In this document: in pieces, positions 24,212 to 63,579 of the stretch
Position numbering within the stretch: position 1 is the first letter of the stretch
Layout of the letters: every line of letters begins with the position of its first letter
NCBI GenBank assembly: GCA_964560005.1
Contig: CAZLKB010000001.1
Location: forward strand, 13,079 to 77,078
Direction of reading: 5' to 3'
Length of the DNA stretch: 64,000 nt
DNA from: an uncultured Gammaproteobacteria bacterium
GTDB lineage: Bacteria; Patescibacteriota; Patescibacteriia; Patescibacteriales; GWC2-42-12
Notes under the pieces: generated by a model
Told to the model about the DNA's origin: nothing
What the model saw: only the letters and a program-made list of their open reading frames with translations
Databases searched by the model: none
Position numbers and translations under genes: made by a program

Positions 24212-24333
24212 AGTTTTATTCTAACATATATTGAAATTTCAGCAAATTTTAGGGCTGCGCCCGGGTTGCCTGTTTCCGGAGCTTTGGTATAATGAAATCT
24301 AAACGAAGCGCATTTAATTCTTACGATATATAA

Positions 24334-24415
24334 TGCGAATACTACAAATTATATTCAAATACTACAAAAAAATATTTATCGGATATTTGTAGTATTCGCA
24401 TTCCATTTGTAACAT
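24334..24415. repeat. AT-rich inverted repeat, 'ACTACAAA' subfamily, in the divergent nagB/activase promoter region
   Basis: TGCGAATACTACAAATT and TTCAAATACTACAAAAA oppose ATATTTGTAGTATTCGCA and CCATTTGTAACATT. Confidence 0.8.
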
Positions 24416-24428
24416 TAGGATTATACTT

Positions 24429-27400
24429 ATGCCTAAAACCAATCTCATTATTATTGATGCCGGGGTGGAACATATCCATTTTGGCATCTACCAAGGCTCG
24501 CAAATAAAAAATCTCTTGATCACAAATAACGATAAAATCGAAACTCTTTTTAAAAACCATGACGTTTTAAAGCTGATTCAGGACCCGGCCGTTGAATTGT
24601 ATCTGACCGGCAAATTGGCGGAAATTATTAGGGCTACGGTCGGGCGCGGGCAGATTATTATGCCCAGCGCCGCGCTTTGGGCCGGAGCTAATTTTTTATT
24701 ATCCGAACTCAATAAAAATTCACTCGGCATAATCGACCTGTCGGCTTCGGGCTATATGGCCATCGCCGTTGACCGCGAGGGCAAGCTCTTAAACGACCTC
24801 TTAATCACCAATCCCCGCTGCGGCGCCGGCAGCGGCATAAATTTAAGCCGGATTTTAGAAAAACTGGCGATCGAAACCCAAGCCGTCGACGAAATCTTAA
24901 AAGATTATTTAGGAGTAGCCGGCCAGGCTAAGAGGCAGGGCGTGGGTATCCGGGCCGACCGTTGCGGCGTTTTCAGTTCCTCGGCCACGATTTCCGACAA
25001 AAACCAGGGCCTGCCCCTGAATTTCGCCCTGGCCGTTACCATGAAATCGGAAGTGCTTAAGGCATGTAAAAAAATGATACCGGACATTGAAACGGTTTAT
25101 CTAACCGGCCGGGTATTTAACTGGCAATACGCCCGTGACTGCGCCGAGGATTACCTTAAAACTATCGGCGTTAAAGAAATAATTTTCGACCAAGGGCAAA
25201 CCCTAATGATTAAGAGCGCTAAACACCTGATTGATGCCGTCGGCCGAGAAAATTTTAAAGAGCAAACCGGGAAAAAATTAAAAAAAGAAGAAAAATTGTT
25301 AGACCTGCCCTCATTTAAAAGCTTAAAAGAAAAATATACCTCCGCCGGCTTGTTTTTAAGGCTCGACGATCCGAAAATCTCCGAAATTAATCACCTGGCT
25401 TTCCAAACCAGACCGGTGAATATCGGCTTAGACGTGGGCTCAACCATGGCTAAAATGCTGATTACGGACGCGGCCACGGGCGAAATCTTATTTTTAAACT
25501 CCTCTGACAACCACGGCGACACCATTGAAACCATTAAGCATATTTTCCGCGGTTTACAGTCGGCCGGCATCACTAAGCTTAACATCCAACACCTGGGCAT
25601 CACCGGCAGCGGGCGTTATCAAGTGCAAAAAGTCTTGCAAAAAGTTTATCCGGGGCTGGCAGACAAAATTTTTGTCTTGGTGGAAAATTACGCTCACGCT
25701 CATGGCTCCATTGAATACGCTAAAGCGCATATCCAAGATTTAACCAAACAAGGCCAGGAAGTTAATCCGGACTTTTGCGTCTTGGTTGATATCGGCGGCG
25801 AAGACACCAAAATTTCCATTATCTCCCTGAAAAAGGAAGAGCTATTTGACAACGCCATGAACATAAAATGTTCGGCCGGAACCGGCAGCTTAATGGACAC
25901 GCTTAAGGCTTTATTCGGCATCAAAGACATAAAAGAGGCTTGCCGGCTGGCCTATGAAGCGGAAAAGGCTTATGAAATTAACGCCACTTGCGCGGTCTTC
26001 TTAATGGAAAACGCACGCGCGATGCAGGGCCAGGGTTATGCCAAGAGTGAAATTCTAGCTTCAGCGAATTACGCCATCGTAGAAAATATGGCCCGAACCC
26101 TTTGGAACCAGGTAAATTTTCCTAAAAACGCGGTCGTGCTCTTGCACGGCCAAACCATGCTCTCCGACCCCCTGCCCCTGGCGGTAACGCGGCGGATTCA
26201 GGAAACCGGAACCATGTATGCGCTGGTGCCGCCTCTGCCGGGCCATCGCGCTTGTTTAGGCTTGATTAAATCAATAAAAAATAAAACCTTCACGGAAAAT
26301 ATTTGCCTGCTGGCTGACTTTATTAATCTTAAATTTGATAAAAAAATAGTTATTTGTCGAGGCGCGGCCTGCGGCGATCAAGCGGCCCGTTGCTCAAGGA
26401 CCTTGCTTAATTCTATCAACCTGGAAGAAAAATTAGTTTTAACGCTGGGTGGCTGCACGGCGGTCAACGAATTAGCATCTAAAAATATTACGGCCGAAAA
26501 AACCCCGGACGCTTACAAAGAAATCTGGCTATTTATCAACCAGGCCCAGCCAAAGTCCCAGGCTAATAACCGCTTGGTTATTCCTCGCAGTTTCGCTATT
26601 TCCGAGCAAGCATTTTTCCTGGCTAAAATCTTTGAAAAACTAGGCATTCCCGTTGAAGTCGATAATGTCCGGGAGACGGATGTTATCGAGGCTCAGCCTC
26701 TATTCAATATTGATGTCTGCGCGCCCTTAATCGGGGCGGCTGGGCAATTTATCAGATTGGCCAAAGCGCCGCACGGCCTTATCCTGGTGCCGCAAATTGA
26801 TTTTTTACCGACTGAAGGCATCAGTCTGGGCAGAACCTGCACTACCAACCAAGGCGGCGTGATTATTGCCGAGCGCATGGCAAAACAAAAATATCCGGCG
26901 GCTAATTTTTATTCCTTTGTCTTAAGCTTAAAAAAAATGGATTCCGAGTATCTGGCCGACCAGTTCTATAGTAAGCTCGACGGATTATTTAAGTATTATA
27001 AATTACCTGTCTCCCGGCCGGAATTTAAACAGGCAATCGAATATGCCGTTAAAGAAAATCGGGATCTGCAAGAGCGCCTGGCCCAGCAGGTTGCCCGATA
27101 TCTGGAAGAGGCGATCCGGCAAAAAAAGAATATCGCCATCGTTTGCGGGCGTGAATATATTTTAAATCCCGGAATATATGACAGCCACGTGGGCAAGCTC
27201 CTAAAGGACAAGGCGGTCATCGCCATTCCCTCCTATGCTCTAAACAGCCGGCTGGATAAGGATTTTGCTTACGTTTACTGGCGCAATCCGCATGATATTC
27301 TAACCAAAATCAATGCCATCACCAATAAAAAATTTCATACTCTGATTATATCGCCTCGGCTTAAGCAATTATTCAAATCTATCGAAACCGGTCTCACCGA

Positions 27401-29171
27401 TTCTTTAATCTCCGCGGTCAGAATTTCTACTTTTAGATGCGGACCAGATACGGTCATCGCTCCGGTTCTTAGTGAAATCACTAAAAAAACACCCAGTCTT
27501 TTCATTCAATCAGACGCCATGATAAAGGAGCTGGCGCATCTGGAAAACCGGGTTAATACTTTTCTTAATCAGTTAAACCAGAAATTGCATGAAGAGTTCT
27601 CCCAAGCGCGTTTCGAGTTAAAACTTATCGACGAGTTCGGGGGAGCGGTCTTGAATAAAGACACGGACGTGATCTATTTTCCCACTCTTAACGATAATCG
27701 GCCGATTACCGCCATCTTCCGAGCGGCGGGATATACTGTAATTGACAATTACGAAAATGAATCTTATGACCTGGAGCATAAAGTGAGATTAGGCAGAAAA
27801 TATGCCGGCGATTCGGTCTGTGCGCCTTTAGCGGCGGTATTCGCCGATATGATGCTGGCTAATGAGGATTTTATAAAGAGAAACAAAGAGCAGGACCCTC
27901 TGCTCAAAGACAAAACCAGGATTATTGTCTTTGACAATAAGGGTACCGGCCCTTGCCGGCAGGGCCAATATTATGAAATGCATAAACTGCTCTTAAGCAA
28001 ACAATTCGGCTGTAACGCCTGCCGGGGTTCTAGCCGGACCTTAGAATATCCAATCAAGCTGCTGGTCGGCCACGAGAAAGATGGTTTTAATGTGGGCTTG
28101 GATGAATGGGCGCTGATTCAATCCTTCCAGGGGATTGTTTTACAGGGAGTTTTACATGCCATTCTCTTGCGTGCCGGCGCCGCCTGCCAGGACTATGATC
28201 ATTACCAAAAATTTTATGAAGATTATATTAAACTAAAAAACGACATCAACAAAATCTTAGAAACCAAAAGCCGGCCCAATAAAACCATACTGGCTATGGC
28301 GCCGGCCATCGGCAAAAAATCTCTAATAGGCGGAGCCATTTTTAAATACTTCGGTTACGGATTGTACAGGAATAACGGCTTAAGAAAAATTCTAAAAAAA
28401 TTCTCCAGAAAATGGATAAAAAACTCCAATCGCGCAGACTATCCAGGTATTGTCATTCCGACCCCGCATTTTGCGGGGGAGGAATCACTTGAACATGGAA
28501 ATGGCGCAAAAGGAATTATTAAACAATCTGAGGAAAGATCAGATAAAATTAAAATTCACATTGAAGGCGAAGCCTATATGCGAGTAGCGCAAGTGGAGGA
28601 AATATTCAAGTCTCTCGTTGACGCCATCGGTTTCAGGTCTTTTACGGCGACATACTCTCCTCTTTGGTGCTATCTGGAGCTATTATTGGAATTCGCCATT
28701 TTAGAATGCCGAGGAGAAATCAGTTTAAGCAAGAGCCAAAAAGAAATTAAGGAAAAGCAAAAACTAATCTCAAAAATTAAAAAATTAATAATAGTTCTAA
28801 GAAAAGTTTTAGCCCAGCCCCTATATAGAGCGGCCAAAATTACCATGCCCGAAGAAATGAGGCTGGTTTTAGAATCGGCCAGGCAAATTTTACCCTCGCT
28901 TAAGCCGCACGGTGAACTGCCGCCCTACCTGGGCGAAGCGATTTTACAAATAAAACACGGTACGGATTTATTCCTTAACGTCGCGCCCGAGGGCTGCATG
29001 GTTTCATCCATGGGCGCGCTCTTCTCCTATCCCATACTTAAGTCCGGCGGACGACCGGCCAGAATTCAAGATCTGTTTACCTTAAACGGCGAAGTTGATG
29101 ACGAGCAGTTAAAAATGTCCTTATTAAAAACCCTTGGACCGGAGAGGTATTATCGTAAAGCTTATAAATAA
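24429..29171 (+). CDS. fusion of two HgdC/BcrAD-BadFG-type activase ATPase modules with DUF2229/HGD-D (2-hydroxyacyl-CoA dehydratase-like) domains; PlsA/PlsR-like
   Basis: Module 1 has NPRCGAGSGINLSRILEKL and ADRCGVFSSSATIS. Module 2 has IGLDVGSTMAKMLITD, KCSAGTGSLMDTLKALFG and NATCAVFLMENA. The C-terminal half has IPRSFAISEQAFFLAKIFEKLGIPVE, DVCAPLIGAAGQ, FRCGPDTV, GDSVCAPLAAVFADMM and GTGPCRQGQYYEMHKLL. Confidence 0.85.
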   Translation: MPKTNLIIIDAGVEHIHFGIYQGSQIKNLLITNNDKIETLFKNHDVLKLIQDPAVELYLTGKLAEIIRATVGRGQIIMPSAALWAGANFLLSELNKNSLGIIDLSASGYMAIAVDREGKLLNDLLITNPRCGAGSGINLSRILEKLAIETQAVDEILKDYLGVAGQAKRQGVGIRADRCGVFSSSATISDKNQGLPLNFALAVTMKSEVLKACKKMIPDIETVYLTGRVFNWQYARDCAEDYLKTIGVKEIIFDQGQTLMIKSAKHLIDAVGRENFKEQTGKKLKKEEKLLDLPSFKSLKEKYTSAGLFLRLDDPKISEINHLAFQTRPVNIGLDVGSTMAKMLITDAATGEILFLNSSDNHGDTIETIKHIFRGLQSAGITKLNIQHLGITGSGRYQVQKVLQKVYPGLADKIFVLVENYAHAHGSIEYAKAHIQDLTKQGQEVNPDFCVLVDIGGEDTKISIISLKKEELFDNAMNIKCSAGTGSLMDTLKALFGIKDIKEACRLAYEAEKAYEINATCAVFLMENARAMQGQGYAKSEILASANYAIVENMARTLWNQVNFPKNAVVLLHGQTMLSDPLPLAVTRRIQETGTMYALVPPLPGHRACLGLIKSIKNKTFTENICLLADFINLKFDKKIVICRGAACGDQAARCSRTLLNSINLEEKLVLTLGGCTAVNELASKNITAEKTPDAYKEIWLFINQAQPKSQANNRLVIPRSFAISEQAFFLAKIFEKLGIPVEVDNVRETDVIEAQPLFNIDVCAPLIGAAGQFIRLAKAPHGLILVPQIDFLPTEGISLGRTCTTNQGGVIIAERMAKQKYPAANFYSFVLSLKKMDSEYLADQFYSKLDGLFKYYKLPVSRPEFKQAIEYAVKENRDLQERLAQQVARYLEEAIRQKKNIAIVCGREYILNPGIYDSHVGKLLKDKAVIAIPSYALNSRLDKDFAYVYWRNPHDILTKINAITNKKFHTLIISPRLKQLFKSIETGLTDSLISAVRISTFRCGPDTVIAPVLSEITKKTPSLFIQSDAMIKELAHLENRVNTFLNQLNQKLHEEFSQARFELKLIDEFGGAVLNKDTDVIYFPTLNDNRPITAIFRAAGYTVIDNYENESYDLEHKVRLGRKYAGDSVCAPLAAVFADMMLANEDFIKRNKEQDPLLKDKTRIIVFDNKGTGPCRQGQYYEMHKLLLSKQFGCNACRGSSRTLEYPIKLLVGHEKDGFNVGLDEWALIQSFQGIVLQGVLHAILLRAGAACQDYDHYQKFYEDYIKLKNDINKILETKSRPNKTILAMAPAIGKKSLIGGAIFKYFGYGLYRNNGLRKILKKFSRKWIKNSNRADYPGIVIPTPHFAGEESLEHGNGAKGIIKQSEERSDKIKIHIEGEAYMRVAQVEEIFKSLVDAIGFRSFTATYSPLWCYLELLLEFAILECRGEISLSKSQKEIKEKQKLISKIKKLIIVLRKVLAQPLYRAAKITMPEEMRLVLESARQILPSLKPHGELPPYLGEAILQIKHGTDLFLNVAPEGCMVSSMGALFSYPILKSGGRPARIQDLFTLNGEVDDEQLKMSLLKTLGPERYYRKAYK

Positions 29172-29477: not shown

Positions 29478-32400
29478 TTACAAATTTTTTAATTGCTCTC
29501 TAAACTTCTCTAATTCTGCCTGCCACCCCGCTAATTTCTCTTTTTCTTTTTTCACGATCTCGGCCGGCGCATTACTAACGAATTCCTTATTAGCCAGCCT
29601 AGCTTCCGCGGCCTTAATTACTTTTTCCAGATTAACAATTTCCTTTTCCAGTCTGGCCTTCTCTTTGGCTTTATCCACGGCTCCAACCAAATATATTTCT
29701 ATATCGCCAACGGCCGCGTAAATCGCGCCGGCAATTTTCTCTCCTTTAGTTTTAATTTCTAACTCACTAATGCCGGTGCGTAAACTTTTTATTAAGTGCG
29801 CCTGCTCGGTTATTAATTTTTTCCGCTTACCCGCATAAATCACCGCTTTAACTTTCTGCCCTGGCTCAACTTTATTTTCCGCGCGCGCGTTGCGGATAGC
29901 GACAATAATCTCTTTCACCACCTCAAACTCTATTTTGTCATTCTGGAGCGAAGCGATAGAATCTGATTTCGGCCATTTCTCCACCATTAAAAAAGTTTTA
30001 TGCCCCATCTTTTGCCAAATTGTTTCCGTCACGAATGGCATAAACGGATGCCAGAGCTTTAATAAATTTTCTAAAACATAATTTAATATCCGGCTCTTTT
30101 CTTCATTTTTTTCAAACTTGCTGGCCTCTAAATACCAATCGGCTAAATCATCCCAGGTGAATTCGCGCAAACTCTCCCCGGCCTGCGAAAAACTATAACT
30201 TTCCAAATCTTCGGTTACTTTCTTTATTAACTCTTCCATTTTTCCCAATATCCACCTGTCCGATATTGTTAGATTCTTTAAGTTTAATTCATTATTCATG
30301 ATTCGTGATTCATGATTCGTGATTATATAACGCGCCACGTTCCACAGCTTATTGGTAAAATTCCTGAAACTGGCGATTTTATCTTCGCTATATTTGGCGT
30401 CGTTGCCCGGCGTATTGCCCATTAACAGCGATAAGCGAACCGCGTCGGTGCCGAATTTATCAATCATCTCCAGCGGGTCAATGCCGTTGCCTTTTGATTT
30501 GCTCATTTTCTTGCCGTTCTTATCCAGTATCATGCCGTGCAGATATACTTTTTCGAACGGAATTTCGTTTAAGGCGTAAAAAGACATGATAATCATGCGC
30601 GACACCCAGAGGGTAATTATTTCATAGCCGGTTTCTAAGACCTGCGTGGGATGAAACCTGGCTAAATCACCCGATTTTTTGCCTTTAACATAATTATCCG
30701 GCCAGCCCAAAGTGGAGAAGGTCCAGGTGCCGGAAGAAAACCAGGTGTCTAAAGTATCTTCATCTTGAACCCAAAAATCTTTTTTCAATTCATTTAATAT
30801 ATCTTGGCATTCATCGCTATTAAAATGCGAGGCGGAATTTTCAACTTTAATTATTTTCGCGTCTAGCGCAACGGCTATTTCAGCAACCTCTTCCGCAGTG
30901 ACTGCGTGATCCTCTCCGGCTTGAAAGATTACTATTTCTCCGACATTTTCTTTTATTTTCTTAAAATCGTATTTATAATTTTTATACTCTATTAACTCCT
31001 TCTTTTTTGTTCTTAGGGAAGGAGCCAGCATGACCAGCTTTTTTATTTTTAAATTACTGCTCTGTATTATTTTTAACGCTAAGGCACTGCCTAATGAATG
31101 CGTCACTATAATGGAATTTTTATCTATTTTAGCACTAGCCAAGACAAACTTTTCCTGCTCATCGCGATTAGGTTTATCCGGATTGGGCAAGATCTGCCAA
31201 AAATTTTCTTGATTCGGCAATTGCTTGTTTAACCAATTTAACGGGTCCTTTACATCTCTGGTACGATAAAAACCGTGCAAAAAAACAAAATTAGAATTCT
31301 GCGGCGCTTCCGCGCCGACATAAATTTCTTGGTCCTTATCTTCTAACTTCTTACTTCTACCTTCTGCCTTCTTATACCAAACCGGTATCCTATGCCCGAA
31401 CCAAAGCTGGCGCGAAACACACCAATCGTGCAGATTATTCATCCAGTCCAGATACCTTTTTTTGAATCTCTCCGGGATAAATTCGATCTTTCCGTCAGCG
31501 GCCGCCGCGATGGCTTTTTCCTTTAGCGACTTTCCACCCAAACGTTTCAATTTCTTGTCCACGTCCACGAACCATTGCTTTGACGGTATAGGTTCGATTT
31601 GCGTGCCGCAGCGGTAGCATAACGCGATATTATGCAGATAGCCGTCTTCAATATGGTCAAGCAAACCCATTTTTTCCATGTCGGCCAAAATCGCCTCCCG
31701 CGCTTCTTTAGTGGTCAAACCGGCGTATTTACCCGTATTGGCCATCATCCGGCCTTGTTCATTTATGACTTGCTTCATGGCCAGATTATGCCTTTGGGCA
31801 ATTTGATAATCCGTAAAGTCATGGGCCGGCGTAACTTTAATCGCGCCTGAGCCGAATTTAGGATCAACCGCCCGGTCGGCCACCACGATAATTTCAAATT
31901 CACCCAGCACGCCCGGTATTTTATATTTCTTGCCCACCATTTTCTCGTAGCGCTTATCTCCCGGGTAAACTGCCACGGCCGTATCGCCCAATTTTGTTTC
32001 CGGACGAGAAGTGGCCAAAACGAATGGACCGTATTTCAGCCAATACAATTTGCCTTTTTCTTCTTTATATTCCACCTCGTCATCGGCTAAAGTGGACTGG
32101 CACCTGGGGCACCAATTTACCACCCTGACTCCGCGATAAATCACGCCTTCGTCATACATATCCACAAACAGCTTTTTCACTGCCTTGGCCCGCGGCTCAT
32201 CCAAGGTAAAGGCCTGGCGCGACCAATCCAAAGACGCGCCCATCTTTCTGGTCTGGCGCAAAATCGTAGCCTGGGTCTCCCGCAAAAATTGCCAAACCCT
32301 TTTTAAAAATTCTTCTCGACCTAAATCGTGGCGCGTTTTTTTCTCTTCCTGCCACAATTTTTTTTCCACCACGTACTGCGTAGCGATGGGCGCGTGGTCC

Positions 32401-32657
32401 GTGCCCGGAATCCAAAGAGCACGTTCGCCCTTCATCCGATGATAACGAATCAGTAAGTCTTCTATGGCCAGCATGGCCGAATGCCCCAGATGCAATTTAT
32501 CCGTAATGTTGGGTGGAGGCAGAACTATGGTGTACGGTTTGGCCGTTTTAGGCAAGCCTAAGTTATCCGGATTAAAAAATCCCGACTTTTCCCACTTTTC
32601 ATAAACGCCGTCTTCGTATTCGGCCGGATTATATATTTTCGGCAATTCTACAGACAT
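29478..32657 (-). CDS. valS: valyl-tRNA synthetase with a nested alpha/beta serine-hydrolase domain
   Basis: PNITDKLHLGHS (HIGH), the CP1 editing domain, WCVSRQLWFGHRIPVWY, QDEDTLDTWFSS, KMSKSKGN and a C-terminal coiled coil. A 202-aa segment separates VWY from QDEDT, where only a short peptide is expected. Confidence 0.95.
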   Translation of the reverse strand: MSVELPKIYNPAEYEDGVYEKWEKSGFFNPDNLGLPKTAKPYTIVLPPPNITDKLHLGHSAMLAIEDLLIRYHRMKGERALWIPGTDHAPIATQYVVEKKLWQEEKKTRHDLGREEFLKRVWQFLRETQATILRQTRKMGASLDWSRQAFTLDEPRAKAVKKLFVDMYDEGVIYRGVRVVNWCPRCQSTLADDEVEYKEEKGKLYWLKYGPFVLATSRPETKLGDTAVAVYPGDKRYEKMVGKKYKIPGVLGEFEIIVVADRAVDPKFGSGAIKVTPAHDFTDYQIAQRHNLAMKQVINEQGRMMANTGKYAGLTTKEAREAILADMEKMGLLDHIEDGYLHNIALCYRCGTQIEPIPSKQWFVDVDKKLKRLGGKSLKEKAIAAAADGKIEFIPERFKKRYLDWMNNLHDWCVSRQLWFGHRIPVWYKKAEGRSKKLEDKDQEIYVGAEAPQNSNFVFLHGFYRTRDVKDPLNWLNKQLPNQENFWQILPNPDKPNRDEQEKFVLASAKIDKNSIIVTHSLGSALALKIIQSSNLKIKKLVMLAPSLRTKKKELIEYKNYKYDFKKIKENVGEIVIFQAGEDHAVTAEEVAEIAVALDAKIIKVENSASHFNSDECQDILNELKKDFWVQDEDTLDTWFSSGTWTFSTLGWPDNYVKGKKSGDLARFHPTQVLETGYEIITLWVSRMIIMSFYALNEIPFEKVYLHGMILDKNGKKMSKSKGNGIDPLEMIDKFGTDAVRLSLLMGNTPGNDAKYSEDKIASFRNFTNKLWNVARYIITNHESRIMNNELNLKNLTISDRWILGKMEELIKKVTEDLESYSFSQAGESLREFTWDDLADWYLEASKFEKNEEKSRILNYVLENLLKLWHPFMPFVTETIWQKMGHKTFLMVEKWPKSDSIASLQNDKIEFEVVKEIIVAIRNARAENKVEPGQKVKAVIYAGKRKKLITEQAHLIKSLRTGISELEIKTKGEKIAGAIYAAVGDIEIYLVGAVDKAKEKARLEKEIVNLEKVIKAAEARLANKEFVSNAPAEIVKKEKEKLAGWQAELEKFREQLKNL
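30774..31298 (-). other. inserted YdeN/RBBP9-like serine-hydrolase domain inside valS
   Basis: FVFLHGF, LPNPDKPNRDE, IIVTHSLGS (Ser codon 31095-31097), FQAGEDHAV (Asp 30909-30911) and SASHFN (His 30825-30827). Confidence 0.7.
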
Positions 32658-53874: not shown

Positions 53875-56800
53875 CTAACTTATTATTCTCTTGATTATTT
53901 CCTCGGCTTCGCTTCTAGCCTGTTCCTCAGTTTTTCCTCCTACTATTCGGTAATACCCGACATATGATTCAATTGCCTCAACATTCGTCATCTCCTTGTC
54001 GGCCCTCTTATCTTCTTTACCAAAAAATTTTTCTAAGGCCTTTCTCTGTCTAAAGCTGGAATTCGGTAACGCAAACTCGTTTAACCAAGCGGCGCTAGAA
54101 AAGGTAATTTTTTCTTGCTGCGATTCTACAGACTCCACGCCCGGGGTGGGCTTCGAAGACATATCGGATGAAATATCTTTTTGTAATGATTCAATCGCTC
54201 TATCTACTATAATTTTAGCTTGAACCATTACTGCGTCTCCGGTTATTTCACCGCCGTCCTTTAAAACCCCCGCAATTGAGTCTATCGCTTGATCTTTAGT
54301 TAATGAAATGCCATTCTTATCTTTAAAATATTTTTTTATCGCCTGCGTCATCTTACGATTATTCTTGGTAATAACCTCGCTTAATTCAGCCACCAACTTG
54401 GCGGCGACTAATCCTTCTATAATTTCGGAATCTTTTGTTGATTCAACTTTCTCCTCTTTATTGGTACTAACGGTTTGAACTTCAGGTCCTTTTCCAGGGT
54501 CTGCGGGTGATTCTTGGGTTGAGATTTGGTCGAGCTTATTTTCAGGGCCTGGTGTAGTAACTGTATCGTCTAATCCTTGTATTAGTTGTTGACTTGTCGG
54601 TCTTATTACTGATCCTCCCTTCCTAGTTGATCCTTGTCTTCTCGCATTTTTAATAACTTTGTCTCCAGTATCATCCACTGGCTTAGGTCCGCTTCCTTTA
54701 ATACTTCCACCACCAGCCCTACCACTTCTTTCGCCCGCCGTTGATATTTTATCCGCCGGTACTACGGGCAAATTTTGATTTAAAACCTCTTCTAAATCCT
54801 TCGCTGGTGCTTGGGTATCAGCCGATGCAGCTGCCTCCTGCCGCGATAAGCCATTTTCGCTAACGGAGACTTTTCCGGTTTGCTTGTATTGCCGCCAAGC
54901 TTCATCAATATTCTTCGCCAGCTTATTAAATTTATTATCAGTTGCCTCTACCGCTTGATCATATCCTAGTCTCTTAGATTCCATTAAATATCCCACATAA
55001 GCCGTCTTAGCCTTATCCAGATTAAGCACCGCGGTTTTAAAATACCCCTTGCCTTCTAATTTAAACTGCTGTTTAGCGATCTTCAGCGCCGACCCCCAAA
55101 GTCCGTTAGGGAAAATAACCTCAAGCCAGCGGCCGGCCTGCAGTTTAATTTCTTCCCGCTCCGCTCTTTGTTCAGTGGCTGGTTCCGGCTCAGTTTCAGA
55201 TGATTCAACCGCTGGCGCGTTTTCGGCCTGATTTTTAGGCGCGCGCCTTCCGCCTTCGGGCTTGAATCTAAAAAATCTTTTTATTGCTCCAAACCACGCT
55301 CCTCTGGTATTTTTTCTTGTTTCCGGGCTAGCTTGCCCCTGATCTAAGGCGACTCTTTTTTGGTCTAATTTTGCAACTTCCTTGTCATAATCATCGTCCG
55401 AATACGCTGCCGCCTCTTCATCTTTTCCGGCATTTACCCTAACTTCCTGGGCTTTGTTAATAGCTTCGCCTATAATTCTTTTATTATTAAAATCAATTGT
55501 CTCTATTATATTATTCACTTCAACCTGGCTTTTAAATCCTCCGCTAACCTTTTTTTGATAAGAGTCTTTAATTTGAATAAAATTTTGGTTCATTTCCCCT
55601 GCACAGGCTTCAACTGACTCCATGTTCCCGGTGCTTGCCTCGGATTGAATTTTATCTCTTAATAGATCATTTTGATGCAATAACCCATTTAGCATATGGG
55701 TATTCTCAAAATCTTCAGCTTTAAATGTGGCCGCTTCATTACTTGTTTCCGCCTTAACTCCTTGACTGACACGAAGGCGGGCAATATCTTCATTATTAAG
55801 TTTTATTCTTGCTTTATTTTTATTCATTCCGGCCGGTCTCGCTTGTTCGGCCTCAACCCCTATTTTTCGCGCTGTTCCGGTTATTTTCCCGGACTTAATC
55901 GGCACTTCAAATCCTGCCTGTTCTTTACCTGTCTTATTTTGACTGGCTCCTCGCTCACCGCTTGGTACTAAATTTTCATCTAACTCTTTTTCAGATTGTC
56001 TTTCATATTGTTCTGGGTGTTCCAGACTATCATATTCAAATTGTTCGCTGCTAGCGCCTTGAACCGATGTTTGAGCCGCTTTTGTTTGAACGGCGCCAGG
56101 AGCGGCTCCCATAAAAGTACCCGCTGGAACTTGATCTTTGCCCGCTTCCCCGGTCTTGGCTTTTCCCGCTTTTAATTCATCCGAAGTCTTGCCGATTTTA
56201 TCAATTCTAGCTCGGGCTCGTTCAACTTCATTCTTTCGCCTGTTTAATTCTTTTATTCTAGCGTCTAATCTAACTCTTTCATTAGTTAAACCTTGTAAAT
56301 CAGCTCTTTTAGAAGCCTCCTCTGCTTTCCATTCAACCGCCTCTTCGCCTAAAACCTTAATAACTTCGCTTGCGCCTCCAACTAACCTTATTTTCTGCTG
56401 CAACGCTTTGATTTCCTCTTTATAGGTTGCTTCTTGAGCTGTTACTACGGTTAAAACTTCAGCCGAGCTTTTTAAGGCTATCTCAATGCCTTCCTGATTT
56501 TTCTTTAATGGTCCGGTAAAAGTTTCTAGTTTAATTTTTAAAGCGGTTTCTTTTTCATCAATTAATCTTTGTTTAAGCATCATTTCTTTTTCCAGTTTAT
56601 CTATTTCTGGTTTTTTCAAGTTTTCTCTTAAGGCGTCCGTTTGATTCCTCAGCTTTTCCAAACTATCTTTCTCCTGAATTAAATCTATGCCGTCCATAGT
56701 CGCTAAATTTTTTAACTTCTCTTCCAATATTTCACCGGCCTTTTCTATAGCCTCCGATTCACTTCTGTCGCCGTAATATTTTTTTTCAACGCGCCCACCT

Positions 56801-57342
56801 ACTTTTTCATACCTTATGGCATAATCTCTATTACCGAAGAGCTTTTCCTTGCCTCCCAATCTTACTGCTTCGGCGCGTTCTTCGTTAGTCAATTTAAAGC
56901 CGGCCTTTTTGTTCTGGTCCAGCTGTTGCTCTACGGATTCATCTAATTTGGTAGCGTCAACCAGCCCTTTTTCTCCTTCAAGGACATAATCGCTCTTGCC
57001 CTTTTTTAACCAAAACCACACCCACTTATTCCATAGTTTTAAACCACTACCCGCCGATTTAAAAACCGGAGCGTCGTCTTTGCCTAGCTTACCCTGACCG
57101 ATTTCTTTCGTATAAATTTCATCTAATGCCTCGGGATCATTGGCTAAGATATCCTCTATCGCCACTCGGCCCAACCCGGAAGCAAACTTTTCGCTTTCTT
57201 TCATTCCTGCCTTTAATCTCTCTATGGTTTCCACCGCCTCCGAAGAAAGGCCGGGTCCTGATTCCTGCTTCGGAGCCTCCGGGCCGGCTTGCTCCGGCTT
57301 CTCGGCTTGGCCTCGGCTAAGTATTGATTCTCTGGTCGCCAT
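53875..57342 (-). CDS. 1155-aa cytoplasmic coiled-coil / low-complexity protein, hypothetical
   Basis: Uninterrupted ORF starting 20 nt after the ftsK stop. No signal peptide or convincing TM segment. Long heptad-like Glu/Lys-rich stretches alternate with Gly/Ser/Pro/Gln-rich linkers. An ~80-aa module recurs three times. Confidence 0.6.
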   Translation of the reverse strand: MATRESILSRGQAEKPEQAGPEAPKQESGPGLSSEAVETIERLKAGMKESEKFASGLGRVAIEDILANDPEALDEIYTKEIGQGKLGKDDAPVFKSAGSGLKLWNKWVWFWLKKGKSDYVLEGEKGLVDATKLDESVEQQLDQNKKAGFKLTNEERAEAVRLGGKEKLFGNRDYAIRYEKVGGRVEKKYYGDRSESEAIEKAGEILEEKLKNLATMDGIDLIQEKDSLEKLRNQTDALRENLKKPEIDKLEKEMMLKQRLIDEKETALKIKLETFTGPLKKNQEGIEIALKSSAEVLTVVTAQEATYKEEIKALQQKIRLVGGASEVIKVLGEEAVEWKAEEASKRADLQGLTNERVRLDARIKELNRRKNEVERARARIDKIGKTSDELKAGKAKTGEAGKDQVPAGTFMGAAPGAVQTKAAQTSVQGASSEQFEYDSLEHPEQYERQSEKELDENLVPSGERGASQNKTGKEQAGFEVPIKSGKITGTARKIGVEAEQARPAGMNKNKARIKLNNEDIARLRVSQGVKAETSNEAATFKAEDFENTHMLNGLLHQNDLLRDKIQSEASTGNMESVEACAGEMNQNFIQIKDSYQKKVSGGFKSQVEVNNIIETIDFNNKRIIGEAINKAQEVRVNAGKDEEAAAYSDDDYDKEVAKLDQKRVALDQGQASPETRKNTRGAWFGAIKRFFRFKPEGGRRAPKNQAENAPAVESSETEPEPATEQRAEREEIKLQAGRWLEVIFPNGLWGSALKIAKQQFKLEGKGYFKTAVLNLDKAKTAYVGYLMESKRLGYDQAVEATDNKFNKLAKNIDEAWRQYKQTGKVSVSENGLSRQEAAASADTQAPAKDLEEVLNQNLPVVPADKISTAGERSGRAGGGSIKGSGPKPVDDTGDKVIKNARRQGSTRKGGSVIRPTSQQLIQGLDDTVTTPGPENKLDQISTQESPADPGKGPEVQTVSTNKEEKVESTKDSEIIEGLVAAKLVAELSEVITKNNRKMTQAIKKYFKDKNGISLTKDQAIDSIAGVLKDGGEITGDAVMVQAKIIVDRAIESLQKDISSDMSSKPTPGVESVESQQEKITFSSAAWLNEFALPNSSFRQRKALEKFFGKEDKRADKEMTNVEAIESYVGYYRIVGGKTEEQARSEAEEIIKRIIS

Positions 57343-57362: not shown

Positions 57363-59987
57363 TTATCTTGAAAAATATTTTCCGTCATCCTCGTCATCAG
57401 AATCTTTAATAGATGACGGCTCGTCTTCTTGCCCTGAGCCATCTGATAGTGAGCCTGTCAAACTAGCCGAAGGGTCTTCGGGCAGGCTTACCGATTTAAC
57501 TCTGGGCTCTTTAATGCTAGCTGATTCGCTAACCGGCTGATCCAAAATTTCTTTTTTAAATTTATTTTCAGCCTCATTATCCGCATCTTCGGTTTCCTCT
57601 GTTTCATCCTCCAACTTATCCTCCAAAGCCTCTTCATCCTCCAAAGCTTCAGCGTCGGAGGAAGCGTCGGCGGGCAAATACTCGTCCGGCGCTTCGGCTT
57701 CCTCTTGCTTATGTAACGGCGCGCCGCTCGGACCTTGACTTACCATACTATCATATTGCTCGCGGCTAATCAAAATTTCCCGCGGCTTGGAGCCCGAGCC
57801 CGGACCGATAACGCCGGCTTCTTCTAAGAGATCCAACAGTCTGGCGGCGCGCGCGTAACCGACGCTTAAGCGCCTCTGCAAATATGAAGCCGAGGCCTTG
57901 CCCGAATTAATGATCAATTCTTTGGCTTCTTCTAAAAGGTCGTCACTGTCTTCCGAACCGCCCGCCTGCCAGCCGGCAATGCCTTGCACCTTCTGCCGAT
58001 CGGTAATGCCTTCAATATACTGCGCTTCGCCGCCGCGGTCTTTAATATAATTAACGATCCGCTTAATTTCGTTTTCACTGACGAAAGCGCCCTGTAATCT
58101 CTTGGGTTTGGAGAATTCCGCCGTGGTATAGAGCATGTCGCCCCGGCCCAGTAATTTTTCCGCGCCTAAGGAATCCAAAATCGTGCGCGAGTCTATGCCC
58201 GAAGCTACGGAAAAAGCGATGCGCGCCGGCATGTTGGCTTTAATCAAGCCGGTAATAACATCAACGCTCGGCCTTTGGGTGGCTAAAACCAAGTGGATGC
58301 CCACCGCTCTGGCCATTTGCGCCAAGCGGATAATCCCGGCTTCTATGTCTTTTCCGGCCGCCACCATCAAATCGGCCAATTCATCAATGATAAAGACCAG
58401 ATAGGGCATCTTACCCATCTCGTCATCGCCATGGACTTTATCGGCTATTTCATTATAACTGACGATATTTTTTCTGCCTGACTTAGCCAAGGTGACAAAG
58501 CGCCTGTCCATTTCATTTAAGCACCATTTTAAAGCGTTAATGGTCTTGCCCACATCGGTGATGACCGGAGTTAATAGATGCGGAATGCCGTTATAGACCG
58601 GCAGTTCCACCCGCTTGGGATCAACCATGATAAAGCGCAAACTGTCCGGGTCGTTTTGATAGAGCAGGCTGATAATAATCGCGTTTAAGCAAACCGATTT
58701 GCCCGAGTTGGTGGCGCCGGCCACCAGTAAGTGAGGCATTTTTGATAAATCGTCCAGCCAAACCTTGCCGCCGACATCCTTGCCCAAAGCGATCAGGGTA
58801 TCGGTTTTTCTGTTTCTATACATCTCTCCGCCCAAGACCTCCCTTAACCCGACGATGGCTTTAGTCTGGTTAGGCACTTCAACGCCGACCAAGGACCGGC
58901 CCGGTATAGGCGCCTCGATCCTGATCGGATGAGCGGCCAGGTTTAAAGCCAAGTCGTTTGATAAGGTGGTGATGCGCGATAATTTAATGCCGTCAGCCGG
59001 CCTAAAAGTATATTGGGTAACGGTCGGGCCGATATTAATCTCTCCCATCTCTACCGGTATGCCGAAATTTTCCAAAGTTTTTTGGATAATCTGCAAGTTA
59101 TTCTTAATGTCGCCGGAGGTGGGTTTGCCGATTTTGGCATTCAGTAAATCCAAGGGCAGCCCAATTTTGATATGAGTCGGCTTCCAGTCGCTATCTTCTT
59201 TTTTAGTTTTACCCGCCTTGGCTCCGACGCTATCTTCGGCCTGGCCGGCCTTGATTTTATGCTTATGAAATCCAACTTCGTTTAACTCTTCCGGCTCGGA
59301 AATTTCGGAGTCGGCGGCTTCATCAAATTCTTCATCCGCGGTTTCTGCGGCTACGGAAGCTGCTTCATCGATTTCATCCCCGCGTCCGCGTCTAAATATT
59401 TTATTAAATACAAAATTGATCGGATAAAGCAATTTGGCGAACCAGCTGTCTCGGCCGATCATAGATTCTAAGGTGGCGTTGAATAGCAGCATGACGGAAA
59501 TGAATAACAAGCCGACGATTACAACCAGGCTGGCCCAAAAACCCATGATTTTATAGAAAATCGTTAACAAGCCGTAGCCGATATAACCGCCGCCCTGGCC
59601 TTCCATAACAGCCGTCTGCCACTTGTCCTGGCCGACAAAAGTATGAAGCAAGGCGCCGAAAGATATGACGAATATAAATAAACCCAAAAAATTAGCGCCC
59701 CTGACCCAATTTTTATCGCGATTATACATTAAAAACCCGATGGCCAGAAAAGATAGAGGAAAAATCCATTTAGCCCAGCCGAATAAAAAGATGATGCCCC
59801 GCTCCAGATACCTGCCTAAGCCTTCAGCCAAACCGAAGAGGCTAAGTAGGCTGATGGCGCCAATAGCCAAAATTAAAATAATAAAAATACCCCTCTTCAT
59901 GTCAGGGTCTAAATTAACCTTGGGCAATCTAATATAATCCAAAGCATTGGCTTTTCTTCGATGTCTTCTCATAATAATATTATTCAA
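57363..59987 (-). CDS. ftsK: DNA translocase FtsK/SpoIIIE with an acidic C-terminal tail
   Basis: N-terminal TM helices, Walker A LVAGATNSGKSVCLN, Walker B-like YLVFIIDELADLM and the gamma winged-helix SASYLQRRLSVGYARAARLLDLLEEAGVIG. An Asp/Glu-rich tail of about 130 aa follows. Confidence 0.93.
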   Translation of the reverse strand: MNNIIMRRHRRKANALDYIRLPKVNLDPDMKRGIFIILILAIGAISLLSLFGLAEGLGRYLERGIIFLFGWAKWIFPLSFLAIGFLMYNRDKNWVRGANFLGLFIFVISFGALLHTFVGQDKWQTAVMEGQGGGYIGYGLLTIFYKIMGFWASLVVIVGLLFISVMLLFNATLESMIGRDSWFAKLLYPINFVFNKIFRRGRGDEIDEAASVAAETADEEFDEAADSEISEPEELNEVGFHKHKIKAGQAEDSVGAKAGKTKKEDSDWKPTHIKIGLPLDLLNAKIGKPTSGDIKNNLQIIQKTLENFGIPVEMGEINIGPTVTQYTFRPADGIKLSRITTLSNDLALNLAAHPIRIEAPIPGRSLVGVEVPNQTKAIVGLREVLGGEMYRNRKTDTLIALGKDVGGKVWLDDLSKMPHLLVAGATNSGKSVCLNAIIISLLYQNDPDSLRFIMVDPKRVELPVYNGIPHLLTPVITDVGKTINALKWCLNEMDRRFVTLAKSGRKNIVSYNEIADKVHGDDEMGKMPYLVFIIDELADLMVAAGKDIEAGIIRLAQMARAVGIHLVLATQRPSVDVITGLIKANMPARIAFSVASGIDSRTILDSLGAEKLLGRGDMLYTTAEFSKPKRLQGAFVSENEIKRIVNYIKDRGGEAQYIEGITDRQKVQGIAGWQAGGSEDSDDLLEEAKELIINSGKASASYLQRRLSVGYARAARLLDLLEEAGVIGPGSGSKPREILISREQYDSMVSQGPSGAPLHKQEEAEAPDEYLPADASSDAEALEDEEALEDKLEDETEETEDADNEAENKFKKEILDQPVSESASIKEPRVKSVSLPEDPSASLTGSLSDGSGQEDEPSSIKDSDDEDDGKYFSR

Positions 59988-60120
59988 ATACTACAAATTA
60001 ACACCCAAATACTACGAAAGAATGCAAAAAACAGACAATACAAATACCTTAGATATAAGATATTTGCAGTATTTGGATAATTTTTGTAGTATTTGAATTA
60101 TATTAATTTGTAGAATGCGC
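59984..60120. repeat. AT-rich inverted repeat, 'ACTACAAA' subfamily, directly upstream of ftsK
   Basis: TTCAAATACTACAAATT and CCCAAATACTACGAAAG oppose ATATTTGCAGTATTTGG, ATTTTTGTAGTATTTGAA and AATTTGTAGAATGCGCA. CAAATAC recurs at offsets 0, 21 and 56. Confidence 0.8.
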
Positions 60121-60152
60121 ATTATATTAATATTATACCATAATTAATCAAT

Positions 60153-60184
60153 AAAAAAAACCCATGAGAATTTCCACTCATAGG
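60153..60184 (-). terminator. rho-independent terminator of the ACP-like gene
   Basis: The minus strand reads CCTATGAGTGGAAATTCTCATGGGTTTTTTTT. Confidence 0.75.
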
Positions 60185-60185
60185 T

Positions 60186-60458
60186 TCAGTCAAGCAAAGA
60201 GCATGCTTCTTGGGCCACGTGCTCGCCGATAAGATCGATCGCGTCTTTGACCACTCTGAAATCTCTAACTTGCGCGTCGGAGATTGTTAGGCCGAATTCC
60301 ATACCCAGGCCAAGAGCTACATTAACCATAGCTAGTGCGTCCGCTCCGAGATCTTCGGCGAACTTAGCCGAAGGCACCACAAGCCTTCTCCGAACTCTCA
60401 AGTTATCTGCAATTACCCTAATCGCGCGTCGTTCTATTTCTGTCGTTGTCGCATTCAT
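60186..60458 (-). CDS. acyl-carrier-protein-like protein with the phosphopantetheine Ser replaced by Ala
   Basis: FAEDLGADALAMVNVALGLGMEFGLTISDAQVRDFRVVKDAIDLI aligns with the ACP core [27 protein letters not shown]. The Ala codon GCA at 60336-60338 sits where the conserved Ser should be. Confidence 0.65.
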   Translation of the reverse strand: MNATTTEIERRAIRVIADNLRVRRRLVVPSAKFAEDLGADALAMVNVALGLGMEFGLTISDAQVRDFRVVKDAIDLIGEHVAQEACSLLD

Positions 60459-60630
60459 TTTAGTTCTCCGTTCTGTTGTTTACCAGCTCTTGGCTGGTTT
60501 ATTTGTTTGTTCAAAAGACCGTTTTGAAAGACCGTCTTACAGTCACCTTAAAATACTAGCCTTGCCTCCATACTTTGTCAATAATTTACCTCGGCAAGCT
60601 TAACCTGACGCCAATTAATCCATAATATCT

Positions 60631-63579
60631 CTAACTTCCGGTTTTTCTGGCCGCTCTAATAAACAACCCTATTAATACGATTATAACCGCTCCGGCTATT
60701 ATCAATAAATATTTAAATAACTCTATTTTTTTATCCCGCTCGGCGATCGCCCACTCTCCGGACGAAGCCACTTCGCCTAAGACTTGAGGCTCTAGCCCGC
60801 CTGCCGGCGAGGCGGGCCCGCCGGCATCGCCTGCTTTAATAATATCATCTTCAGAGCGCGGCATCAGCCTCAACCCTGTTGAAGTCTTACCTAAGATGCC
60901 GGTTACCGAAACCGCCTGACCGGGCGTTAAATTTTTTGTGCTAATGCCGGCGGCCTGCTTAATGTATATTAAAATTTCACCGCTGCCGTCGTCTAAATAA
61001 AGTGTCGAGCTTTTTTTGTCCGTGATTTCGCCGCTGACGCGAAGCAATTGTCCGATATTTTCTTCGTTCACCTGGTCGCAGCTTAGCTCTAGAGCCGGCG
61101 GAGGCGCTCCATGCTCTTTTACTGCCATATCGCTCTTTGCCTTGGTTTTTATTCTGGCTTCGCCTTGAGTTTGCGCCAGCTCTCCCGAAACCTCTAAATA
61201 ATCGCCTACCGTAAGCGCGGGAAAATCTTTTTTATAATTATAAACTTGCAGGCCGGTGGAAGAGCTTACGACATAAAAAACCTGCGTGCCTAAAATACCG
61301 GGCAAAACCGCCACCGTGCCTTTAACTTTTACCAAGCTGGCGATCTCCAGCTCCTTGGCCTGTTCCAAAGATGCCTCTGTATAATCAGCCTCCTCAACCC
61401 TAGCGCTCGAGACGCTGCTTAAAACAATCGCGCTCTTGCTGCCGGCTAGGCTGATTATATTGTCCCGGCCAGGCGTCAGTTTAGTAGTCCAAAACCACTT
61501 GCCGTTTTCACCCCGCGCGTAAGCCTCGCCTTGAACCGCCTCGCTGTACTCCACCCGATCAATCAGCTCGTCTAAATCATTATATAAGCTGATGACGTCC
61601 GAACTGTTCTTAAACGCCAATTTGCTAACCGTATTGGTTAACAGATAGAAATCGTCCTCCTCCAGCCAGGCATCATTTTTAAATTTATACCTGCCATTGC
61701 TATTTTCTAAACGCCAATTTGCTAAATTTAACTTTTCCGCGCCCTGATTTTTTAATTCCGCCATTTCTTGCCCCGTATCCGCGCCCGCCGGATCGGGAAA
61801 AATTTCGTTAATAATTATGCCGCCTTCACCCCCTTTCAAAAGGGGGGTGCGGGGGGTTACCGCACTTAAGCCAGTCGCCTCGCCACTTAACTCGCCGACA
61901 TTATTTGCCACTTTCACGCTTTTCACTTTTTCCGCGGTTGTCTGGCTGTCGCTCACTGCCAGCCTGACCTCATAAATGCCGGCCTTAAAAAAAGTGTGTT
62001 CCGGATTGGCTAGAATGTTTTTGAAGCCGTCGCCAAAATCCCAGGCATATTTCAACCGAGCGCCATCGGGCGCACCCGTGTCCGAACTGTCGAAAACCGC
62101 CGGCTGGCCGGTTAGAATATTCTCCGGAAAACTAAATTCAACTTCAATCACCCGGCTAGCCGCTTGGGTTTGTACCACATTAACCGCCCCAGGCGTCGGC
62201 AACTCACTCCACTGCCATTCAGTATTTACATTATTCGCTAAATTCGCTTTCAATTCGCTTAAATTAGTTTTGACATAGCTCCAGCCCTCTTTAACATTCT
62301 TATACGCCACGGTTTGCGCCGGCTTATCGGCCAGGGGCTGGAATAATCTAACTTCCCCCTGGTCATTATGTAAAACTATTTTCGTTCTTGGCCGAAAAAA
62401 GGCTAAATATTCGCCGGCTCTGATTAAAGTACCGGTAGCAATTTTTTCCAAATTTACTTTTTTTTCATCTTCATTACTTAAGCTCCAACCGGTTAAATTG
62501 ACCTCTCGCGCGCCCGCATTATATATTTCAATGAATTCCAGTTTGGCGTCGTCGCCGGCCGGATTGGGCAGCAATTCGGAAAGATAGATGTCGTTAGAAA
62601 AATCAAATCCGGCCCTAGCTTCTTGGCTGACCTCATCTTCCGCTTGAATCAGATTGCTTGAACCCTTGGTCGGTTCAAGAGTAACGGCGAAATCGTTGGC
62701 GTTATTAAAAGTATTATAGCCGTCAAATTTTCTGGCCAGGCTCTCGGGGTCGTGAGCGACTGGAGCATTATCCGATAAATTTCCGTCAGGCCAGTTGCCA
62801 TAAACCACTTGGTCAATAATTTTCCCGGCTGAATCATGTAAAACTATAAGATCGCCGCTGTTATTTAAATTACCCGACGGCTTGTCAATTATCTTGTAAC
62901 GGTTTAAGTCACTCAAACCCAAACTGCCGGTCAGATTAGTTTTCGCCTTACTGCCGTCTTCAAGCCACCAACCGGTTAAATCAATCTCTTGGCTGGTTTT
63001 ATTATATAATTCTATCCACTCAACCTCGTTATCCGCCGGGTCGGAGACGAATTCGTTTATTAATACATCGCCAAGATTATTGGTCCCCTTTGACAAAGAT
63101 GGGCCTGCCTGCGCAGGCAGGCTGGGGGGATTTTCCACATCGCCAGTCGAAGTAGCCGTCTGGTCCGGCGGCGGAGTAATAACCACTGTTTCTACGGTAC
63201 AACCCGAGCTGCAGCCGTCGCCATCGGTTAAATTCCCGTCATCGCAGCCTTCGCCCGCTTCTAGCGCCGCGTTGCCGCAAACCGGCAGAGCGGCATCGCC
63301 GCCTACGGTGATTAAATCTTTAAGGCTATCAAAAGTGGCTTGCTTTATACCGGTGACATTCATTATGTCTTCAATTTTTTGGAATAGTCCTACGCTGGCG
63401 CGATAATTTATTATCTCCTGGGCTTTAGCCGGGCCGATTCCCGGCAAAGTATCCAGTTCTTCTACGGTTGCGGTATTTATATTTATTAATCCAACCGCTT
63501 CAATTTCTTGGGTACAAAAAAATCCCGCGGTCATGATCGCCAGGATTATAAAAAAAACCCACCCTCCTTGTTTTAGCAT
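60631..63579 (-). CDS. large surface protein: ComEA-type HhH + Cys-rich repeat + three lamin-tail domains + PKD domain + OB-fold-like region + C-terminal TM anchor
   Basis: The HhH region is NTATVEELDTLPGIGPAKAQEIINYR and the Cys-rich repeat is CGNAALEAGEGCDDGNLTDGDGCSSGC. LTD-like motifs occur three times (LINEFVSDPADNEVEWIELYN...LTGWWL; LSELLPNPAGDD..EFIEIYN; IINEIFPDPAG). The PKD region reads YAWDFGDG...EHTFFKAGIYEVRLAVSD. The C-terminal TM segment is LLIIAGAVIIVLIGLFI. Confidence 0.75.
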   Translation of the reverse strand: MLKQGGWVFFIILAIMTAGFFCTQEIEAVGLININTATVEELDTLPGIGPAKAQEIINYRASVGLFQKIEDIMNVTGIKQATFDSLKDLITVGGDAALPVCGNAALEAGEGCDDGNLTDGDGCSSGCTVETVVITPPPDQTATSTGDVENPPSLPAQAGPSLSKGTNNLGDVLINEFVSDPADNEVEWIELYNKTSQEIDLTGWWLEDGSKAKTNLTGSLGLSDLNRYKIIDKPSGNLNNSGDLIVLHDSAGKIIDQVVYGNWPDGNLSDNAPVAHDPESLARKFDGYNTFNNANDFAVTLEPTKGSSNLIQAEDEVSQEARAGFDFSNDIYLSELLPNPAGDDAKLEFIEIYNAGAREVNLTGWSLSNEDEKKVNLEKIATGTLIRAGEYLAFFRPRTKIVLHNDQGEVRLFQPLADKPAQTVAYKNVKEGWSYVKTNLSELKANLANNVNTEWQWSELPTPGAVNVVQTQAASRVIEVEFSFPENILTGQPAVFDSSDTGAPDGARLKYAWDFGDGFKNILANPEHTFFKAGIYEVRLAVSDSQTTAEKVKSVKVANNVGELSGEATGLSAVTPRTPLLKGGEGGIIINEIFPDPAGADTGQEMAELKNQGAEKLNLANWRLENSNGRYKFKNDAWLEEDDFYLLTNTVSKLAFKNSSDVISLYNDLDELIDRVEYSEAVQGEAYARGENGKWFWTTKLTPGRDNIISLAGSKSAIVLSSVSSARVEEADYTEASLEQAKELEIASLVKVKGTVAVLPGILGTQVFYVVSSSTGLQVYNYKKDFPALTVGDYLEVSGELAQTQGEARIKTKAKSDMAVKEHGAPPPALELSCDQVNEENIGQLLRVSGEITDKKSSTLYLDDGSGEILIYIKQAAGISTKNLTPGQAVSVTGILGKTSTGLRLMPRSEDDIIKAGDAGGPASPAGGLEPQVLGEVASSGEWAIAERDKKIELFKYLLIIAGAVIIVLIGLFIRAARKTGS

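Follow-up and report, generated by a model that had tools for sequence, protein, structure and literature searches.

Few bacterial proteins are as conserved or as highly connected as acyl carrier protein (ACP), whose acidic helix II surface is the docking site for AcpS and the lipid enzymes. To our knowledge, the known PPTases (the AcpS and Sfp families) act on no residue of a carrier other than the N-terminal Ser of helix II. The Plasmodium mACP has no phosphopantetheine (Ppant) group yet is essential, acting through Isd11-Nfs1 (PMC8547962). In E. coli, apo- and holo-AcpP stimulate MukB equally well, and the AcpP-stimulated ATPase was lowered in MukB-KRK, in which three basic residues are mutated (PMC8602292). 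A survey of CPR genomes identified no enzymes that produce or require ACP (PMC7242380). Our literature search found no published description of Ser-less stand-alone ACPs in CPR, nor of a linkage between acpP and ftsK.

The window, by which we mean the whole 64-kb stretch of DNA that was analysed, is part of a Candidatus Falkowbacteria (CPR) genome. At 60186..60458 on its minus strand lies an ORF with an ATG start, which encodes a serine-less protein of 90 aa with an ACP fold (MNATTTEIERRAIRVIADNLRVRRRLVVPSAKFAEDLGADALAMVNVALGLGMEFGLTISDAQVRDFRVVKDAIDLIGEHVAQEACSLLD), the motif region of which reads FAEDLGADALAMVNVAL. A phmmer search against all PDB chains gave 114 ACP matches, the best of which was the T. 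thermophilus ACP 1x3o (E=1.1e-13). The HMMER alignments with 1x3o, 2ehs and the E. coli AcpP chains were gapless over 73-77 residues, with identities of about 38% to E. coli AcpP and 44% to T. thermophilus ACP, and every one of them placed Ala41 opposite the Ser of the DSL motif (DLGADSLD). Codon 41, the position of the Ppant-attachment Ser and the first residue of helix II, is GCA (60336..60338 on the minus strand, tgc on the plus strand), and the DLGADALAMV segment contains neither Ser nor Thr. Ser occupied the attachment column in 154 of the 178 domains among the top library matches and in 78 of 80 metagenome ACPs. The Logan assembly of SRR12133404 (L001) was identical to the window over 3276 bp, the GCA codon included. 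The first-pass annotation, which had read an Ala in place of the attachment Ser and had proposed an alignment of that column as a check, is thus borne out by the gapless alignments and by a second assembly. The search with Pfam PP-binding (PF00550), which it had likewise proposed, was passed marginally (21.9 bits against a cut-off of 20.8). All NCBIfam AcpP models stayed below their cut-offs (best 60.1 versus 71; TIGR00517 51 bits versus 70.45). Unlike DltC or PCP proteins, the window protein had best NCBIfam matches that were all of the AcpP type, DltC being absent among the 15 NCBIfam families listed, and neither dlt nor NRPS genes are present in the window.

The protein is predicted to adopt the four-helix ACP fold. 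The AlphaFold2 model, made with an alignment of 24 sequences, showed helices at 3-20, 41-55, 61-65 and 70-89 and a pLDDT of 83.5, a confidence that owes partly to the input alignment, which consists mostly of canonical ACPs. The top 50 Foldseek matches were all ACPs, the best again being 1x3o (TM 0.81/0.91, rmsd 1.0 A), and ACP was also matched as a subunit of the complexes MukBEF (9gm6), Nfs1-ISD11-ACP (5wkp) and Orf2971-FtsHi (8xks). The 22 positions which we take to be the hydrophobic core of E. coli AcpP were all still hydrophobic in the window protein at the gapless offset (22/22). On the other hand, 8 of the 20 acidic positions of E. coli AcpP were kept and 12 were lost, three of them to Arg, which brings the net charge of the domain (70 columns) to +1, as compared to -15 or -16 for the E. 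coli and B. subtilis ACPs and -12 to -16 for the canonical ACPs of related Falkowbacteria. Helix II has two acidic residues versus five to seven in canonical ACPs, D38, E41, E47 and E48 of E. coli AcpP being replaced by A, N, G and M. With the core kept and the charge and helix II changed, the missing Ser is thus one element of a much broader loss, which has removed the carrier's recognition surface and left the scaffold intact. As compared to AcpP (TIGR00517/PF00550), the window protein shares the four-helix fold and the EDLGAD loop leading into helix II, and its gene is the positional orthologue of the AcpP genes of sister genomes, but it differs in the exchange Ser36->Ala, the missing acidic helix II, an Arg-rich helix I (RVRRR), the charge of +1 instead of -15, a pI of 5.06 (about 5.1) instead of 4.05 in E. 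coli AcpP, its scores under every NCBIfam AcpP cut-off, and a window without fab, pls or acpS context. Two features that define a functional carrier, the Ser and the acidic helix II, are lacking in this AcpP homologue. The earlier claim that it cannot be a conventional acyl carrier stands accordingly with the ACP homology and fold confirmed, the attachment Ser replaced by Ala and the acidic helix II lost as well.

The downstream neighbour of the gene is ftsK (57363..59987, minus strand; Pfam FtsK_4TM, alpha, motor and gamma), and the upstream neighbour encodes a 982-aa surface protein with ComEA-HHH, LTD, PKD and OB domains according to Pfam (60631-63579). GyrA, UvrABC, several tRNA synthetases, type IV pilin-like proteins, an AcrB-type pump and large unannotated proteins are also encoded in the window. 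The first-pass annotation had seen no fab, pls or NRPS/PKS partner nearby, and the domain search agreed, in that none of the large ORFs in the 64 kb gave a match to a fab, pls, acpS, NRPS or PKS domain; a second ACP-like ORF was not found in the window either. Its statement that the gene is GC-richer than its neighbours did not hold: the GC content is 0.505, as compared to 0.48 for ftsK and 0.478 for the upstream gene, and GC3 is no higher (0.484 versus 0.547 and 0.499, respectively), the AT-rich spacers being the only parts that differ in GC from the ACP-like gene. Horizontal transfer as judged by GC was rejected, because both GC and GC3 match those of the neighbouring genes. Phage origin was also left without support, because the chromosomal synteny of the gene is conserved (see below); PHROGs gave only a weak 'acyl carrier protein' match of 26.7 bits.

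Several other features of the window were recorded. The C-terminal tail of FtsK after the gamma domain (residues ~741-874, window 57363-57760, minus strand) is long, extremely acidic and of low complexity, and it was matched in six related loci (L004, L005, L007, L008, L011 and L012) and not in most others. A 13-nt motif, TTTGTAGTATTTG, occurs 12 times in the window with at most two mismatches, versus 2.9 expected, and 12 copies were reached in 0 of 100 shuffles. It forms tandem or inverted arrays upstream of ftsK (four copies), uvrA (two copies) and the gene of a 1580-aa BcrAD/DUF2229 protein (three copies), and the positions are 59985-60095, 12960-13034, 24336-24398 and 36269. These arrays may be a DNA-damage operator of the LexA type with direct repeats. 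A passage of PMC7739468 states that direct-repeat LexA motifs arose several times, and its citations include a Patescibacteria study. The 1580-aa protein itself (24429-29171, plus strand) contains BcrAD_BadFG ATPase and DUF2229 domains. The valyl-tRNA synthetase ORF (29478-32657, minus strand, 1059 aa) has a Ser_hydrolase (PF06821) match inserted in its core at residues 461-616, and a 1155-aa protein encoded at 53875-57342 (minus strand) had zero Pfam matches; it resembles a coiled coil and has a high content of Lys and Glu.

A scan for FtsK in species-representative genomes gave 80 loci, all from Candidatus Falkowbacteria or Patescibacteria MAGs and the source genome of the window not among them, with FtsK identities of 51-80% over the best aligned segment. 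In an iterated HMM search of all ORFs of these loci, ACP-like ORFs were found only directly upstream of ftsK and on the same strand. This slot was filled in about 20 loci, with one to three ACP-like genes each, and held weak remnants in seven more (about 20-27 of the 80), those of L020, L027, L045 and L052 being barely recognisable. It was empty in many genomes, including the close relatives L004, L008, L009, L010, L013, L014 and L063. The gene beyond the slot varies (LTD protein, glycogen synthase, NUDIX, cobalamin adenosyltransferase), so ftsK is the only constant neighbour, and no other co-conserved partner gene was found in the related loci. Around the relatives that have the Ser, no lipid or PPTase genes were seen; their neighbours included glycogen synthase, thioredoxin-reductase-like, NUDIX, cobalamin adenosyltransferase and AdoMet decarboxylase genes.

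Canonical members with DLGADSLD were present in nine loci (L006, L031, L034, L035, L075, L026, L011, L012 and L038), with net charges mostly of -10 to -16 and of -6 in L035. Three Ser-containing members were tested against TIGR00517 (cut-off 70.45) and scored 105 (L006), 109 (L031) and 89 bits (L034). The coordinates of these canonical AcpP genes are L006:5630-5869, L031:2247-2501 and L034:5534-5800, and the net charges of their products are -13 to -16. The gene had been called an orphan, a description that must be given up: it sits in a conserved slot 5' of ftsK, and bona fide AcpP occupies that slot in related Falkowbacteria. The other ACP-like proteins scored lower, P0153 with 73.8, P0011 with 55, the window protein with 51, L005 with 43, and L007 with 26 and 20 bits. 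In the Ser column, Ala was found in the window protein, in P0011 (locus L002) and in the second copy of L066, Arg in P0153 (locus L003), Met in L023 and Phe in the first copy of L011, and L007 has three tandem copies that are all Ser-less (E, K, Y). Several derivatives have thus lost the Ser or degenerated independently of each other, and the window gene is among them. Tandem ACP-like ORFs lie at L007:4559-5488 (three), L066:5096-5717 and L011:5131-5704, the latter two loci each having one copy with the Ser and one without it.

The neighbour-joining tree of FtsK grouped the window with L004, L005, L007 and L008, with L006 as the outgroup. Within this subclade the slot is canonical in L006, degenerate in L005, Ser-less in the window and L007, and empty in L004 and L008. 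An N-terminal motif of the RAIRVIA type is common to the window protein, P0011, P0153, L005 and L007. These slot states, the graded TIGR00517 scores and the shared motif argue for vertical descent and not for import. The ACP-like family has diverged to 30-50% identity, versus 70-77% for the adjacent FtsK. Other small ORFs of 110-130 aa also occur in the slot (L015:5495-5827, L033:5449-5823, and about 5490-5890 in L054, L062 and L069); they fall into two small families (identities of 41% and 36%) with faint ACP-like similarity at the C-terminus, and may be ACP derivatives that have diverged beyond recognition. The small ORF of L015 sits behind a promoter and a leader box like those of the window gene.

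The immediate subfamily is very small. In an exhaustive HMMER search of 1.84 billion representatives nothing but the window protein itself had more than 50% identity to it, and the same search brought out P0011. Profile searches with two- and three-member alignments against 5.8 billion clusters found only P0011 and P0153, at about 150 bits, followed at 89 bits by ordinary ACPs. A word-indexed search with the window protein alone returned itself and two generic ACPs only, and a metagenome scan with the subfamily profile gave 80 loci, all generic ACPs of at most 42% identity, with no new members and none beside ftsK. P0011 (94 aa) and P0153 (85 aa) both come from other samples than the window. 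All three members are singletons and all lack the Ser, its codon being GCG (Ala) in L002 and AGG (Arg) in L003, and their identity is 39-49% (MAFFT alignment of the three), with the EDLGA loop before helix II strictly conserved. Downstream of the gene in L002 there is a gene starting MARRRRK, like the ftsK of the window, and in a longer contig of P0011 an ORF of 800 aa or more follows the gene at a distance of 177 nt. The dN/dS values (NG86) among the three members were 0.31-0.49, which are only indicative because dS is saturated.

The gene had been described as monocistronic, with its own TTGACA-17-TAGTAT promoter and a strong terminator, and both signals were recovered. The sigma-70-type promoter TTGACA-N17-TAGTAT (60553..60581, minus strand) agrees with 10 of 12 consensus positions, and TTGACA-N17-TAnnAT is also found upstream of the closest relatives L002 and L003 as well as in L011, L012, L005 and L015. 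Direct-repeat detection found two tandem leader boxes, AAGACGGTCTTT C AAAACGGTCTTT (60514..60538, minus strand), about 15-40 nt 3' of the -10 hexamer. The box AAAGCGGTCTTTT occupies the corresponding position in L002, L003 and L011, about 12-15 nt after the -10, and variants of it are AAGTGGTCTTTT in L012, AAGCGATCTTTC in L005 and AAATGGTCTTTT in L015. There are four copies of CGGTCTTT in the whole 64-kb window, two of them within the leader of the ACP-like gene, and the box might function as an operator or as part of the 5'-UTR. The 5' leader also contains a short hairpin (60482..60498, minus strand, ACCAGCCAAGAGCTGGT), which was terminator-like in the scan on the plus strand only; no T-run follows it on the coding strand, and it is not conserved in L002 and L003. 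Rfam gave nothing credible on 59900-60700, and the leader is therefore no riboswitch of a known class. The RBS, GGAG, read from the sequence, is located 7 nt before the ATG (60466..60469, minus strand), with equal spacing in L002 and L003. The intrinsic terminator (60148..60187, minus strand) has an 11-bp stem and an 8-nt loop (stem-loop 60187-60158) and overlaps the stop codon, with the T-run TTTTTTTATT behind it; equivalent GC-rich terminators follow the genes in L002 and L003. The intact ORF, the promoter, the box AAAGCGGTCTTTT, the RBS GGAG and the terminator are thus conserved in all three members. After the terminator and ahead of ftsK there is an extended -10 promoter, TGGTATAAT (60132..60140, minus strand), which is probably the separate promoter of ftsK and is conserved at the same place in L002 (~444-452, after the terminator). 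The sole other copy of TGGTATAAT in the window is at 24285-24293 (plus strand), before the gene of the 1580-aa protein, which also has the TTTGTAGTATTTG motif. The ACP-like gene and ftsK therefore have separate promoters with a terminator between them, and their link is positional only.

We favour, with some reserve, the reading that the window protein is an apo-locked descendant of acpP that has been kept for protein-protein binding without a prosthetic group. By homology and by position, the gene is a separately transcribed, diverged descendant of the Falkowbacteria acpP sited 5' of ftsK. It has lost the Ser that transferases of the AcpS/Sfp type modify, and with it Ppant at the canonical site, together with most of the acidic docking surface of helix II; because both are lost, the protein is locked in the apo form and unable to shuttle acyl chains. 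Selection on it as a folded protein would continue, and its most likely activity would be binding to other proteins, in the absence of a prosthetic group, through the remodelled, near-neutral surface. Since the core, the ORF and the expression signals are kept at 39-49% identity, and since L007 has multiple Ser-less copies, the protein is probably still used. The sole positional clue to a partner is the conserved adjacency to ftsK, and the sole functional precedents are the activation of MukB by apo-AcpP and the Ppant-less mACP of Plasmodium. The role as an adaptor proposed in the first-pass annotation is plausible. Against a retained function, 5.8 billion clusters contained only three members of the subfamily, each of them a singleton, and since the slot is empty in many close relatives, the role of the protein would be dispensable in this clade. 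For an ACP, dN/dS values of 0.3-0.5 are high, and they are unreliable at such divergence.

The main alternative, to which we give a lesser though appreciable chance, is that the gene is a decaying relic: the clade would have stopped needing holo-ACP, for example after the loss of acpS or of the last ACP-dependent enzyme, and a functionless gene would be drifting towards loss. CPR genomes are of about 1 Mb, and dead genes are usually deleted quickly from them, which speaks against a long-lasting relic. Neutral drift would erode core and surface alike, and here all 22 core positions are intact while the surface has changed; the conservation of ORF, promoter, leader box, RBS and terminator among relatives only 39-49% identical, and the retention of tandem Ser-less copies in L007, are also hard to reconcile with decay. 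Nevertheless, the slot of the subclade runs from canonical through degenerate and Ser-less to empty, the TIGR00517 scores grade from 105 down to 20, and barely recognisable remnants are left in L020, L027, L045 and L052, all of which a relic would explain. The elevated dN/dS, the rapid divergence and the rarity of the subfamily point the same way, as does the report of CPR genomes without ACP-producing or ACP-requiring enzymes (PMC7242380). Relaxed selection would fit the patchy distribution and the fast divergence almost as well as the apo-locked reading. That the protein is still a carrier, with Ppant or another group placed on Ser30, Thr58 or Ser60 by an unusual transferase, is very improbable. 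These residues are present in loops and the EDLGA loop is strictly conserved in the subfamily, but P0011 and P0153 conserve none of the three, the acidic docking surface has been lost, the window contains neither a transferase gene nor one for acyl handling, and the activity would depart from the established specificity of PPTases for the Ser of helix II. An error of sequencing or assembly in a normal acpP is scarcely credible. One T-to-G change would turn the Ser codon TCA into GCA, and both assemblies may stem from the same reads; however, two assemblers gave an identical sequence of 3276 bp, and the two nearest relatives, from other samples, also lack the Ser. In addition, the changes are correlated across the protein, twelve acidic positions and the equivalents of D38, E41, E47 and E48 being altered too, and a TIGR00517 score of 51 bits is far lower than a change of one residue would produce.

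The apo-locked reading can be set beside the described systems. Like the window protein, the apicomplexan mACP is an ACP homologue which has no attachment Ser and cannot be a carrier; it is retained where type II FAS is absent, as may also hold for the window protein. It binds the LYR-motif protein Isd11 with Nfs1, whereas no partner was found for the window protein, and we know of no LYRM proteins in bacteria. The mACP is essential, whereas the window protein is dispensable at the level of the clade. The absence of FAS was observed for the window protein within the 64-kb window, and beyond it is taken from the CPR literature (PMC7242380). The E. coli AcpP-MukB pair likewise uses the ACP fold as a binding module with a link to chromosome segregation, which here is only the adjacency of the gene to ftsK. 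However, E. coli AcpP is still a canonical acidic carrier, whereas the window protein has lost the acidic surface that would meet the basic site. The Ser-less ACP/PCP domains of PKS/NRPS also have a carrier fold without the attachment Ser, but they sit inside megasynthases, whereas the window protein is of the stand-alone AcpP type with no PKS/NRPS nearby.

One could suppose that Falkowbacteria, presumed like other CPR to be incapable of fatty acid synthesis, have kept an acpP-derived gene tied to ftsK because the ACP fold has a Ppant-free role in chromosome segregation or cell division, of which the window protein would be a charge-neutralised specialist with a conserved regulatory leader. 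We regard this as a doubtful conjecture; if true, such a role would parallel that of apo-AcpP with MukB and that of the malarial ACP that lacks Ppant. Should the gene be no more than a relic, it would be a neat case of gene decay with little wider consequence. Some Falkowbacteria carry a textbook AcpP beside ftsK although CPR have been reported to lack the enzymes that make or use ACP, and an ACP that survives without its prosthetic group would show which interactions matter beyond lipid synthesis. The slot upstream of ftsK, with its natural series from canonical through apo-locked to lost, may serve as a test of a carrier-independent role of ACP in minimal bacteria, and would also allow the dismantling of a hub protein to be followed during genome reduction.
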